Source: Candidatus Micrarchaeia archaeon
Lineage (GTDB): Archaea; Micrarchaeota; Micrarchaeia; Burarchaeales; JAVZCV01
Reading direction: 5' to 3'
Length of the DNA: 64,000 nt
Assembly (NCBI GenBank): GCA_038874215.1
Contig: JAVZCV010000001.1
Span: 6,452 to 70,451 of the forward strand
In this document: piece after piece, positions 30,915-62,359 of the stretch
How the letters are laid out: every line of letters starts with the position of its first letter
Numbering within the stretch: position 1 is the first letter of the stretch
Notes under the pieces: model-generated
The model's input: only the letters and a program-made list of their open reading frames with translations
Database searches by the model: none
What the model was told of the DNA's origin: nothing
Made by a program: the position numbers and the translations under genes

Positions 30915-31178
30915 GTGGCTGCTGGAGAAATCATAACCAACCTTCTTCTTGCAGTTGTTTATACGGTTGTTGGGGCTGTTCTTGGGATGTTATTTCTGAG
31001 TATTGCAACGCTCATTGTGCCAAGGATAGTTGACATGATTACGCCAAAGATAGATGACGAGAAAGAGATGCTTCGCGGAAACCTTGCTGTTGCAACCTAT
31101 GTTGCACAGATAACGCAGGCAGTCATAATCGGCATGAGCATCATAATAGCCGCGGCGGTAATCGGGGGCATATTCTAA
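30915..31178 (+). CDS. Small two-transmembrane-helix membrane protein (DUF350-like)
   Basis: 87 aa with two hydrophobic helices, immediately upstream of the Hint-Tim44 gene. Confidence 0.4.
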   Translation: MAAGEIITNLLLAVVYTVVGAVLGMLFLSIATLIVPRIVDMITPKIDDEKEMLRGNLAVATYVAQITQAVIIGMSIIIAAAVIGGIF

Positions 31179-31186
31179 GTGGAAAA

Positions 31187-33340
31187 ATGAAGCGTATATT
31201 GTTTTTTTTACTATTGGCTTCCTTTTTATTGTCTTTTTCTCCAGCATACGCGAGGGCGGGCGGGGGTTGCTTTCTTCCAGATACGCTTATTCTTGCGGCA
31301 AATGGGACGCTGGTTCCGATAGGTAGTTTGAAAAGTGGGGATGTTCTTCTTGCATTTACCGAAAATGAGCAGATAGTTAATGTAAGCGTAGATGAAGCGT
31401 ACGGCATAGAGGTAGACGGGTATTACGTGATAGGTATAGAAAAAATAGAAGTGAAAGTTACGGGGGAACATCCATTCTACGTTGGAGATGGTAAATTCAA
31501 GGTGGCAGAGGAGATTGAAATCGGTGATTATGTTTTCGTTTTCAATGGAACAAGTCTTTCTCGGCAGATGGTTGTGGGAAAAAGAAAGGTGAATGAGAGC
31601 GGAGTTAAGGTATACAATTTGAGGACTGGCTGGCCGAACACATACTTTGCGAATTTTATTGCAGTGCATAATAAAGGGGGAGGAGGCGGGGGCGGTGGAG
31701 GGGGAGTTAGATCTTCATCTAGCAAGCACTACGAATCGCCATACAGAGAAGATACATACTGTGGAGCTGTAAAGACGTTTGAGCTGAAGAATGGGAGCAA
31801 GATAAACGGAAGCGAGTGCATCTACGTACATTACCACAAAACGCAAAGCCCACAGGCAACAAGGCTTTCAGACTGTGTTCGCACTAATTCAGATTCATGG
31901 AAGCAGTGCGAGAGTCTTGCGGGTTTCGCTTTGAGTCATGAATTGCAGTTTAGGTGTGCAAACGATGAGGAATGCGCGGGTCTGGATTATATTGAATTGA
32001 AGAATGGCATGCGTGTGAAGGTTATAAAGCCGCTAGTAACTTTTGACTGTTGTACTTGTTGCTGTGTTGGCATATTCTTTATGGCTTTTGGTTTGTTTTT
32101 TGTGGGCGGAATTGCAAATTCGGTCTTGTATGTTGTGAGTGGTGGGAGGTTGGGCTTCCGCCCATACCGCACTGGCGAAAATTTGGACTATTGCTACTCC
32201 CCTGCACAGATTGATGCGAAGGTAGCGAGAACGAAAAAGCTGCTTGATTACCTCGCGGGCATTGACAGAATGTGGGAACCAGAGCTTCTTAAAAAGACTG
32301 CAAGGGAGACTTTTACCAAAATGCAGAGATGCTGGGAGGCACGCGATTACTCGGAAATGCGGCCCCTCATGATGCCGTACCTGTATGCGCAACATGTAGC
32401 GCAGATAGAATCAATGAAGCGGAACCATGAGATAAACAAGCTTGAAGGGCTTGAAATTAGGAGAGTAGATATAGTGCATCTCAGGCATTATGCGAAGAAG
32501 AACCAGCAGGAATTCACGGCGCTTGTAGAAGCAAGCGTTCGGGACTATTATGTTGATGACAGAACGGGTGCATTTCTACGGGGAGACAAAGTTCCAGCAA
32601 CTTTTCAGGAGTTTTTGGTTTTCCAAAGGCAGGAGGATAGATGGCTTCTGAGGGAGATAAACCAGACCCGCGAGTCAGATGCGCTTAGGGCAGAGAATTT
32701 CGTTGAGGAACTTACGCCGCTGCAGCTCCAGAACATATATGGTTCTGCTGCGCAAAAGCCAACCGAAAAAGCCCCATGGTTAGATGATTCGCTCGCACAG
32801 AAGGGCGAAAAGGTACATAGAATGCTGAATTTCCTCTCAACAACAGACAAAAGCTGGGATGAGGATTTCATGAAGGAAAGCGCAAGAAGGATATTCGTTG
32901 AGGTTCTAAGCGCTTTTGAAAAACGGGATATTTCGGCTCTCGCGCCTTATCTTATGCCCGAGGCATTGGAGTTTTACAACGGGCAGATTGGAAAAATGAA
33001 GGAAGAAAACAGGACTATTGAATACAGAAACATGTGCGTGAGGAAGGTTGAGATAATCCTTGTAAAAAACTTTGCTGACAGCGATAAAGACGAGTTCACG
33101 TGCAGGATAAGTGCGCACGCACAGAAGATAGAGAGAAAGGGAGGCGTGGTAGTTCATAGGGACCCTGATGTCGTGCCTTTTGAGGAATATTTGACATTCC
33201 AGAAGCAAAAAGGCGAGTGGAAGCTTAGGGAAGTGCAACCGCCAGCACGAGCGCATGCAATGATAGTGGCGGAAAACGTGGATGAGGAGGTTTCAAAAGA
33301 ACAGGTGCAGTGGTATTACACAAAGGATAGAGCGCTCTGA
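31187..33340 (+). CDS. Secreted/membrane protein: signal peptide, Hint (intein/BIL-like) domain, poly-Gly linker, transmembrane segment, and two Tim44-like (NTF2-fold) domains
   Basis: Signal peptide MKRILFFLLLASFLLSFSPAYA. Hint block A CFLPDTLIL starts at 31268; block B is VTGEHPFYV; blocks F/G are VYNLRTGWPNTYFANFIAVHN ending at 31672, followed by KGGGGGGGGGG. A Cys-rich hydrophobic transmembrane stretch follows. Two repeats of a Tim44-like pattern then occur (…TFTKMQRCWEARDYSEMRPLMMPY…DRWLLREINQ and …VEVLSAFEKRDISALAPYLMPE…GEWKLREVQ). Confidence 0.6.
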   Translation: MKRILFFLLLASFLLSFSPAYARAGGGCFLPDTLILAANGTLVPIGSLKSGDVLLAFTENEQIVNVSVDEAYGIEVDGYYVIGIEKIEVKVTGEHPFYVGDGKFKVAEEIEIGDYVFVFNGTSLSRQMVVGKRKVNESGVKVYNLRTGWPNTYFANFIAVHNKGGGGGGGGGGVRSSSSKHYESPYREDTYCGAVKTFELKNGSKINGSECIYVHYHKTQSPQATRLSDCVRTNSDSWKQCESLAGFALSHELQFRCANDEECAGLDYIELKNGMRVKVIKPLVTFDCCTCCCVGIFFMAFGLFFVGGIANSVLYVVSGGRLGFRPYRTGENLDYCYSPAQIDAKVARTKKLLDYLAGIDRMWEPELLKKTARETFTKMQRCWEARDYSEMRPLMMPYLYAQHVAQIESMKRNHEINKLEGLEIRRVDIVHLRHYAKKNQQEFTALVEASVRDYYVDDRTGAFLRGDKVPATFQEFLVFQRQEDRWLLREINQTRESDALRAENFVEELTPLQLQNIYGSAAQKPTEKAPWLDDSLAQKGEKVHRMLNFLSTTDKSWDEDFMKESARRIFVEVLSAFEKRDISALAPYLMPEALEFYNGQIGKMKEENRTIEYRNMCVRKVEIILVKNFADSDKDEFTCRISAHAQKIERKGGVVVHRDPDVVPFEEYLTFQKQKGEWKLREVQPPARAHAMIVAENVDEEVSKEQVQWYYTKDRAL

Positions 33341-62229: not shown

Positions 62230-62268
62230 TTTTGCACCTATTAGATAATATGTGAAAGTTTTAAAAAG

Positions 62269-62359
62269 CGCCCCCACTGGGATTCGAACCCAGATTACAG
62301 GCTTGCTCCACTGTGAGAAATGCCGGAGGCCTGCGTCCTGTCCTTTGGACGATAGGGGC
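62269..62359 (-). tRNA. tRNA-Arg(CCG) with a 19-nt intron at 37/38
   Basis: Minus strand: acceptor GCCCCTA/TGGGGGC plus G; D-arm GTCC-AAAGGACA-GGAC; anticodon stem CAGGC/GCCTG with loop CTCCGG|A; T-arm CTGGG-TTCGAAT-CCCAG. Confidence 0.55.

Follow-up and report, generated by a model that had tools for sequence, protein, structure and literature searches.

We have found that a Hint domain of the BIL (bacterial intein-like) type forms part of a conserved membrane protein, and we consider it somewhat better than an even bet (about 55%) that the exported Hints of this family excise themselves from the Gly-rich tail of a Tim44-type membrane protein that has a small DUF350 protein as its partner, a model built from sequence patterns. 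Hint and BIL domains are familiar chiefly from variable secreted toxins, selfish inteins and Hedgehog proteins. Here, BIL-type chemistry would be part of a conserved two-gene membrane module common to archaea (Micrarchaeia) and many bacterial phyla. A first inspection of the DNA (hereafter the sequence-only reading) had taken the architecture to be undescribed, and we found no paper on Hint plus Tim44, intein plus Tim44, DUF350 plus Tim44 or COG4395 (the co-mentions of inteins and Tim44 were unrelated). However, it is widespread, not rare, with at least 725 matching proteins and 134 clusters at 50% identity. Its carriers number at least 204 GTDB species, among them Micrarchaeia, PVC bacteria, Syntrophales and Desulfarculales, and NCBI has names for the members, either "TIM44-like domain-containing protein" or "polymorphic toxin-type HINT domain-containing protein". 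All of the 80 species listed, out of at least 204, are MAGs, which explains why the family was missed by experimenters.

Gene pair, domains and membrane topology

The window is the whole stretch of 64,000 nucleotides that was analyzed; coordinates are positions within it and residue numbers are those of the 717-aa protein. The features are as follows.

30915..31178 (+), DUF350/YjfL-like partner gene, 87 aa with two TM segments, GTG start with GGAGGTG ahead of it
31187..33340 (+), Hint-Tim44 gene, 717 aa plus stop
31187..31252 (+), signal peptide, residues 1-22 (MKR, hydrophobic core, A-Y-A), from hydropathy and the family pattern
31253..31267 (+), N-flank R-A-G-G-G, its last residue the invariant Gly(-1); family consensus R-G-G-G-G
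31268..31672 (+), Hint domain, residues 28-162, family type "B", with Cys28 (block A), T92-x-x-H95 (block B) and H161-N162 (block G)
31673..31705 (+), C-flank, invariant Lys163 (+1), then 10 Gly (164-173), disordered in the model
31739..32041 (+), Micrarchaeia insert domain, residues ~185-285, alpha/beta, with six invariant Cys (192, 211, 230, 241, 257 and 263)
32048..32065 (+), C-C-T-C-C-C cluster, residues 288-293, at the outer edge of the TM helix
32054..32137 (+), transmembrane helix, residues 290-317, from hydropathy and a helix in the model
32174..32197 (+), conserved juxtamembrane motif E-N-L-D-Y-C-Y-S (330-337), cytoplasmic side
32201..32665 (+), Tim44-like module 1, residues 339-493 (Pfam match 355-493)
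32786..33238 (+), Tim44-like module 2, residues 534-684 (Pfam match 552-684), internal paralog of module 1
33272..33337 (+), conserved C-terminal tail ENVDEEVSKEQVQWYYTKDRAL (696-717), where W709 and R715 are invariant

The limits of the open reading frame given by the sequence-only reading were borne out exactly. NCBI record MEM3399241.1 is the same protein with its start put at TTG 31229, giving 703 aa. No second Hint copy was found in the window, which has a single HNKGG-coding site. Only 8 nt lie between the end of the partner gene and the start of the Hint-Tim44 gene. The partner scored 24.1 bits (E=4e-5) against Pfam DUF350 (PF03994), just below the cut-off of 26 bits, and its orthologs at other loci have precomputed DUF350 matches classed as "weak". 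Besides, it is 41–52% identical to the small gene upstream of homologs, and a same-strand upstream homolog of it is present at approximately 74 of the 76 loci with upstream sequence. One DUF350 loop (K50-E51…R54-G55-N56) is invariant. That the Hint-Tim44 gene and the one for the small DUF350 membrane protein make up a two-gene operon is well supported. Beyond DUF350 no conserved neighborhood was detected across five loci, the downstream genes being different at every locus.

The protein had been described as secreted. Actually, a single-pass membrane protein with the N-terminus outside and the C-terminus inside is well supported, as indicated by the canonical signal peptidase I site, by the distribution of sequons and Cys (six N-X-S/T sequons and six conserved Cys in the ectodomain, two sequons in the cytoplasmic part) and by the basic residues located past the TM helix. 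The N-terminal export and membrane anchoring proposed earlier are supported. Signal peptidase I is predicted to cut before R23; over the family, position -1 was A, G or S in 155 out of 155 proteins and position -3 small or aliphatic, with a median signal peptide length of 23. The alternative of a lipoprotein, suggested by the string GGGC, was rejected: the hydrophobic core stops 6–7 residues ahead of the Cys, there is a Gly at -3 of this Cys, and the canonical signal peptidase I site is found ahead of the Arg.

The poly-Gly run noticed from the letters was found, with 10 residues and not 11, and so were the Cys cluster and TM segment that had been placed after it, although a separately folded domain of ~100 aa (pLDDT 89) intervenes. 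This insert domain, predicted to be extracytoplasmic, was found only in the Micrarchaeia members of the family, and, among the aligned homologs, the C-C-T-C-C-C cluster occurs in the window protein only. On the cytoplasmic side, the presence of two Tim44-like (NTF2-fold) domains was confirmed. Pfam Tim44 (PF04280) matched with E=1.1e-33 over the whole protein, the modules taken singly scored 64.4 and 62.9 bits (gathering cut-off 29.6 bits), and their NTF2-like alpha+beta fold is closest to Tim44/MRPL45. Compared with each other by hhalign, module 1 and module 2 matched with 99.6% probability (E=1.4e-24), and the interpretation of this part as a duplicated membrane-associating module is well supported. 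Module 1 bears a patch of invariant polar residues. The scores against NCBIfam TimA (NF033778, 26.4 bits, curated cut-off 200) and Tim44_TimA_adap (NF033779, 57.7 bits, curated cut-off 80) stayed far below the cut-offs.

Relationship of the Hint to BILs, inteins and toxins

Residues 28-162 have the beta-fold of the Hint superfamily, and the search with Hint-family HMMs that had been suggested as a check matched Pfam PT-HINT (PF07591) at 36.1 bits with the whole protein and 40.4 bits with the isolated domain, above the gathering cut-off of 27.7 bits. All the motifs quoted before are present: C28-FLPDTLIL, VTGEH(95)PFYV and VYNLRTGWPNTYFANFIAVH(161)N(162), then K163. The closest matches, both in sequence and in structure, were BIL domains, the top structural one being BIL2 of the ciliate BUBL (BIL-ubiquitin-like) polyprotein. 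Judging from its residues, the window Hint is closest to the type-A BILs, with the N-terminal nucleophile (C28), T-x-x-H (T92/H95) and a terminal His-Asn without Cys, Ser or Thr at +1 (H161-N162-K163). This agrees with the sequence-only reading, which had favored a BIL or cleaving type of Hint over a canonical splicing intein. Type-A BILs likewise have the HN and no +1 nucleophile, and they mostly cleave, ligation taking place via the freed amine (PMC4031507).

The same residues are kept throughout the family. Among the 438 copies scored for position 1 and block B, the first residue was Cys in 436 and Ser in two, and the block-B Thr and His were each found in 436. The 468 HMM-defined Hint domain ends all consist of HN followed by KG, and the residue at -1 is always Gly. 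Selfish mini-inteins splicing from a host protein would also show blocks A, B, F and G, their structural scores were almost equal to those of the BILs, and the unbroken tail of the Hint-less relatives (see below) looks like an intein-free allele. We nevertheless regard this origin as very improbable. The class-1 pattern has Cys, Ser or Thr at +1 and here Lys is found in every copy, so that there is no residue for the branched intermediate; no homing endonuclease is present, the location is exported instead of cytoplasmic, the Hints keep the order of their paralogs fixed and co-diverge with their host (r=0.93), and BIL sequences score far above inteins.

The name polymorphic toxin that NCBI gives to some members, together with PT-HINT being the best Pfam model, could suggest that the Hint releases a C-terminal effector, and a polymorphic cargo system had been proposed before. 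This proposal fails, and we give it hardly any credit, since the C-terminal region is not variable but conserved, keeping 45–64% identity between domains of life, and lies in the cytoplasm behind the TM helix. A trafficking or repeat region is missing from the N-terminus, no immunity-type gene was found downstream at the loci compared, and the genes appear as one copy per locus amid housekeeping genes. PADLOC gave no match for either the Hint-Tim44 gene or its partner, for which reason a defense system was rejected too. On our preferred reading, the Hint-Tim44 protein is neither a polymorphic toxin nor a canonical intein.

Hint arrays, Hint-less relatives and proposed self-excision

Typical members have between two and five tandem Hints, belonging to three types that follow the fixed order A-B-C and share only ~30% identity, and the three types are ancient. 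Single-Hint members are found in several lineages, and it is well supported that the window protein is one of them, the minimal member of a conserved family. Its Hint had been described as sitting directly after a signal peptide and not inside a host protein. This is misleading, since in the family the exported tail is rich in Gly and has the Hints within it (...ARGGGG / Hint(s) / KGGGG...). In Hint-less relatives such as P0272 and P0327 the order is signal peptide, ARGGGG, Gly/Ser-rich tail, TM and two Tim44 modules, with the tail unbroken, which gives it the appearance of an intein-free allele. These relatives with a continuous tail are distant (only about 31–44% identity), so their tails may be ancestral look-alikes and not evidence of ligation. 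Most of the ~400-aa matches that could be taken for close Hint-less relatives were fragments or truncated gene calls. Three more candidates were discarded, L085 as a degraded Hint remnant joined to unrelated sequence and P0173 and P0238 for their multi-TM N-termini, unrelated to DUF350. For P0228 and P0235, two distant relatives that lack the Hint, no neighboring DUF350 gene was detected.

According to the self-excision model, the protein would be exported by Sec and cut by signal peptidase before R23, and the Hint would fold outside the cell. Cys28 would then turn the Gly27-Cys28 peptide bond into a thioester and the cyclization of Asn162 would sever the Asn162-Lys163 bond. As there is no Cys, Ser or Thr at +1, two outcomes could be expected: either both junctions are cleaved or, by analogy with type-A BILs, the freed amine of Lys163 attacks the thioester and the flanks become joined. 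In both cases the Hint would be released, leaving the Gly-rich tail, the TM helix and the two Tim44 modules (plus, in the archaeal lineage only, the disulfide-type domain). The Hint-less relatives have the design of this predicted product written directly into their genes, which argues for self-excision, and autoprocessing of the family members is what we infer from the conserved residues and the homology. The Tim44 pair and DUF350 would constitute the lasting membrane-associated unit, and the ectodomain that removes itself might act as a pro-domain, a release signal or an environmental trigger. It counts against the model that loss of the signal peptide would leave the first Hint with an N-flank of just five residues, so that cleavage at the N-terminal side would yield no obvious useful product. 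An extracellular Cys nucleophile needs reducing surroundings, and it is plausible that these mostly anaerobic lineages provide them.

Mean identity was 0.60 for the type-B Hint vs. 0.62 for the cytoplasmic body, and the two diverge together (r=0.93). This similar conservation, the co-divergence and the fixed A-B-C order exceed the needs of self-removal and hint at an extra function of the Hints or of their products. Some Hint-superfamily domains do no processing, and a domain conserved as a whole to the same degree as the body could be a catalytically silent ectodomain, a receptor or spacer for instance, where the conserved residues serve only for folding. This seems to us quite improbable, considering that the residues for both reactions are kept in about 440–470 copies of such divergent paralog types, that the sole substitution at position 1 is by Ser, still a nucleophile, and that Gly(-1) and Lys(+1) are invariant though they lie outside the fold.

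Rather unlikely, but of more weight, is a conjugation platform similar to BUBL, where the thioester at Gly(-1) would be resolved not by the freed N-terminus of the protein itself but by a different amine, for example the side chain of a Lys (perhaps the invariant one at +1) or an amine of the envelope. The upstream segment, which in multi-Hint members would be the preceding Hint with its K-Gly(n), would end up covalently attached or cyclized without ATP. BUBL BIL2, the best structural match, reportedly forms a Lys-epsilon isopeptide and acts as an ATP-independent "dispensing platform" (PMC8616854), and the invariance of Lys(+1) and Gly(-1) in 468 of 468 copies would fit, as would Hints constrained like the body and ordered A-B-C, if the products are the Hints themselves after release or transfer. 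Against it, the single-Hint members, that of the window included, could transfer nothing except a five-residue peptide after loss of the signal peptide, neither a target nor an acceptor could be recognized, and the neighborhood past DUF350 is not conserved. Taken further, and still more tentatively, the ordered arrays could be an extracytoplasmic ATP-independent protein-ligation device, the prokaryotic counterpart of BUBL, in which each Hint activates the C-terminal Gly of the preceding unit as a thioester that is passed to an amine, with DUF350 and Tim44 coupling it to the cytoplasmic face of the membrane. This amine would be that of Lys(+1), of an envelope component or of the unit's own N-terminal Cys, the last producing a backbone-cyclized Hint.

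Comparison with known systems

Tandem, putatively self-processing units with minimal Gly flanks are a natural system for intein biochemists and could serve as ligation or cyclization tools, and the family offers a handle on two poorly understood groups, the bacterial and archaeal Tim44-like proteins and DUF350. Type-A BIL and PT-HINT domains (e.g., the Clostridium thermocellum BIL, PDB 2LWY) are hosted by variable secreted or toxin proteins, whereas a conserved membrane protein with its Tim44 pair in the cytoplasm acts as host here. Invariant flanks border the Hint (RGGGG before it and K-Gly(n) after it), and the tandem arrays of the family are ordered, with up to five copies. The BUBL polyprotein of Tetrahymena (PDB 6TMM/6Y75), which is eukaryotic and cytoplasmic, has BILs and ubiquitin-like domains in alternation; here the Hints adjoin via K-Gly linkers, are extracytoplasmic and have no ubiquitin-like cargo. 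Unlike in Hedgehog, there is no sterol or adduct-recognition region past the Hint, which is followed by Lys-Gly10, and no N-terminal signaling domain, the signal peptide and RAGGG being all that precedes it, while the C-terminal His-Asn found here is missing from Hedgehog. In comparison with the Tim44 C-terminal domain, MRPL45 and the bacterial Tim44-like proteins, the module is in tandem duplicate with its own TM tether, and it shows invariant polar motifs specific to the family (RNHEIN, RDYYVDDR and FQEFW) as well as a QWYY tail. Finally, the partner resembles the DUF350/YjfL proteins of the envelope-stress operons linked to PspA or polyamines in its weak DUF350 match and in being a small multi-TM protein beside membrane-associated proteins, but it shows no linkage to PspA, Band-7, ATP-grasp or polyamine genes, and its minimal two-TM form is particular to the Hint-Tim44 family.

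The gene pair and the domain layout

We found the open reading frame at 31187..33340 (+) that the sequence-only reading had described, encoding 717 aa and carrying all the motifs quoted for it. The NCBI record of this Candidatus Micrarchaeia MAG protein (MEM3399241.1, 703 aa) starts at a TTG at 31229, with which most of the signal peptide is lost. The ATG at 31187 is located 8 nt past the stop of the upstream DUF350-like gene, agrees with the starts of the family and gives a signal peptide resembling those of all homologs. An AlphaFold2 model from a 50-sequence family alignment was confident (mean pLDDT 85). The upstream gene and the parts of the model are:

30915..31178, same strand, immediately upstream: two-TM ORF of 87 aa, with a GGAGGTG motif ahead of its GTG start
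Residues 28-162: Hint, beta-rich
After the Hint: Lys-Gly10 linker, disordered
Residues ~185-285: insert domain, folded alpha/beta
Residues 290-317: single TM helix
Residues 339-493 and 534-684: two alpha+beta modules

The run of 11 Gly reported before counts 10, and the Cys-rich transmembrane stretch said to follow it was borne out only in part: the helix is there, but a separate folded domain lies between it and the poly-Gly.

The HMM check upheld the Hint assignment. PT-HINT (PF07591, Pfam cut-off 27.7) matched residues 35-156, scoring 36.1 bits on the full-length protein and 40.4 when the domain was searched alone, and residues 28-162 are beta-rich in the model. The closest PDB sequence is 2LWY, the bacterial intein-like (BIL) domain of Clostridium thermocellum, whose alignment spans residues 28-162, and the +1 residue is Lys, in agreement with the earlier proposal of a BIL-like domain without a +1 nucleophile rather than a splicing intein. 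On every sequence criterion tested the domain qualifies as a PT-HINT/type-A BIL member. Type-A BILs end in His-Asn without a +1 nucleophile, form a thioester at their N-terminal end and cut at the C-terminal one through cyclisation of the Asn. Cleavage is the dominant outcome, but the flanks are ligated if the liberated amine attacks the thioester (PMC4031507).

The two predicted Tim44-like domains also stood, scoring 64.4 and 62.9 bits individually (PF04280 cut-off 29.6). Both Pfam and the fold class these modules as Tim44-like, but with a score of 26.4 (cut-off 200) they are not TimA; the two are internal paralogs (hhalign 99.6%, E=1.4e-24). The polar motifs RNHEIN, RDYYVDDR...RGD and FQEFW, family-invariant in module 1 (window 32201-32665) and missing from module 2, suggest a specific ligand or partner site in module 1 and not generic membrane binding.

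We infer an N-out, C-in orientation, with the Hint outside and the Tim44 pair cytoplasmic, from the cleavable signal peptide, the sequon bias (six N-X-S/T in the 268-residue ectodomain vs two in the 387-residue C-terminal part), the basic residues that follow the TM helix and the six Cys of the insert domain, invariant among archaeal members and suggesting disulfides there. The loop of the DUF350 partner is probably cytoplasmic too, since it holds all four of its Lys/Arg. The idea of a polymorphic cargo system is contradicted by this topology, by the conserved C-terminus, by the missing immunity or trafficking features and by the lack of any PADLOC defence-system hit; on these counts we give a polymorphic toxin almost no credence.

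Two other observations concern the window. A C-C-T-C-C-C cluster (window 32048-32065), absent from every aligned homolog, borders the TM helix on its outer side; it could serve as a site for metal or redox chemistry, or could be incidental. The tRNA-Gly(TCC) call at 62268-62359 (-), with 92 nt, exceeds standard tRNA length and probably contains an archaeal intron.

Family distribution and the DUF350 partner

Far from being unique, the window protein has at least 725 matching database proteins, and relatives are encoded in at least 204 GTDB species representatives. PF07591 and PF04280 occur together in nearly all of the best 120 of at least 725 matches, and the cytoplasmic half as query gave 134 clusters at 50% identity (E<=1e-30). 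The 80 genomes listed, of at least 204 species, are all MAGs, and among them are Micrarchaeia, Lentisphaerae, Sedimentisphaerales, Phycisphaerae, Planctomycetota, Verrucomicrobiota, Kiritimatiellaeota, Syntrophales, Desulfarculales, Smithellaceae, Myxococcota, Auribacterota, Anaerolineales, Terriglobia and one gammaproteobacterium. Members usually measure 860-1100 aa, a length owed to their two to five Hints in tandem; bacterial proteins P0172, P0189, P0197 and P0225 have one, like the window's, and copies range from 1 to 4 inside most phyla.

The 87-aa ORF scored 24.1 bits against DUF350, just under the Pfam cut-off of 26. At four further loci that we inspected closely, a homolog with 41-52% identity sits in this upstream place, and no other neighbour was found to be conserved; of the 76 fetched loci with enough upstream sequence, about 74 have an upstream homolog. 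The literature places DUF350 (YjfL family) solely in envelope-stress operons linked to PspA and polyamines, as one of their components (PMC11237479).

Junctions, Hint types and co-divergence

Of 438 extracted Hint copies, 436 have Cys at position 1 and 2 have Ser, and the block-B Thr and His are each present in 436. The Ser-starting Hints are the second copies of two Micrarchaeia members, P0005 and P0009 (...HNKG-SFLPDT/SFLPET...); with Ser a nucleophile is kept, as selection for catalysis would predict. With domain ends set by HMM, so that the motif was not presupposed, His-Asn followed by Lys-Gly was found at 468/468 Hint ends and Gly before every start. Ahead of the first Hint there is always a signal peptide plus R-G-G-G-G (in the window, R-A-G-G-G); successive Hints are joined by Lys and 1-7 Gly, and Lys with 1-11 Gly comes after the last one. 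The signal peptidase I site is canonical (-1 A/G/S in 155/155 proteins, -3 small or aliphatic, median signal peptide length 23), and therefore the predicted mature N-terminus is R-GGGG-Cys... The invariant Lys+1 and Gly-1, with BUBL BIL2 as top structural hit, could fit BUBL-like conjugation or cyclisation, since BUBL BIL2 makes Lys-epsilon isopeptides without ATP (PMC8616854), but one-Hint members would pass on just a pentapeptide, and we regard this route as doubtful.

The copies fall into three types, ~46% identical within a type across phyla and ~30% between types, in a fixed order (A-B-C-C in 42 proteins, A-B-C in 37, minor forms otherwise). Type B ('CFLPDT...PNTFFAN-AVHN') is almost universal and is the sole copy in the window protein. 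A silent structural ectodomain is improbable, given that catalytic and flanking residues are invariant across three paralog types only 30% identical. Pairwise identities of type-B Hint and Tim44 body were correlated with r=0.93 (83 proteins; reached in 0/500 permutations) and their means were 0.60 and 0.62. By this divergence the Hints are co-inherited with the protein and equally constrained, and not mobile elements. A canonical selfish intein, contradicted by this co-divergence, the +1 residue and the exported location, is thus very unlikely. Constraint this high over the whole domain, together with the fixed A-B-C order, suggests a role beyond disappearing for the Hints or for their products.

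Hint-less relatives and the proposed excision

Full-length Tim44-pair relatives without Hints are more distant (about 31-44% identity). They open with a signal peptide, then 'ARGGGG' and an unbroken Gly/Ser-rich tail up to the TM helix, as in P0272 ('...YARGGGGGGTGGGGGGGFGGG...'), P0327, P0300 and P0301. This tail matches the sequence expected after Hint removal and flank joining. Evolutionarily, the Hints lie within an exported Gly-rich tail, comparable to an intein in its host protein. No DUF350 neighbour was found at the two Hint-less loci inspected, too few for a conclusion.

Two further loci deserve mention. In a Thermoguttaceae relative (L085:1366-4245), with no DUF350 upstream, only the last ~25 Hint residues (...VYNLQTDAPNTFLANGLLVHNKGGGGGG...) survive, fused in-frame after ~500 unrelated N-terminal residues; either this copy is rearranged or decayed, or the assembly is wrong here. 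The distant Hint-less Tim44 protein P0235 (L086:580-3755; 'TRGGGGGHSGGGG...' tail) has a Band-7 plus zinc-ribbon gene upstream and, downstream, a 96-aa gene whose product repeats the N-terminus of P0235 (MHEQLRVRGHLQLTRGGG...Gly/Ser/His-rich...TM); this locus may be a different membrane-stress-type module sharing the Gly-tail/TM design.

Our working mechanism, at a probability of roughly 55%, is self-excision of the Hint from the exported tail. After export, Cys28 and Asn162 would cut it out, and the remaining (RAGGG-)K-Gly10-insert domain-TM-2xTim44 would act together with DUF350. The analysis shows the domain folds and families, the DUF350 operon and the Hint-less forms with a continuous tail, and also that the junction residues and all catalytic residues of type-A BILs are conserved.

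Annotation pipelines already name Hint-Tim44 proteins; a full-text literature search found no paper on the family. New with respect to described systems are the setting of the Hints in a conserved membrane protein of Tim44 type that has a DUF350 partner, the tandem Hint arrays in fixed order, the invariant RGGGG/...HN/K-Gly junctions and the span of the family over archaea and bacteria.
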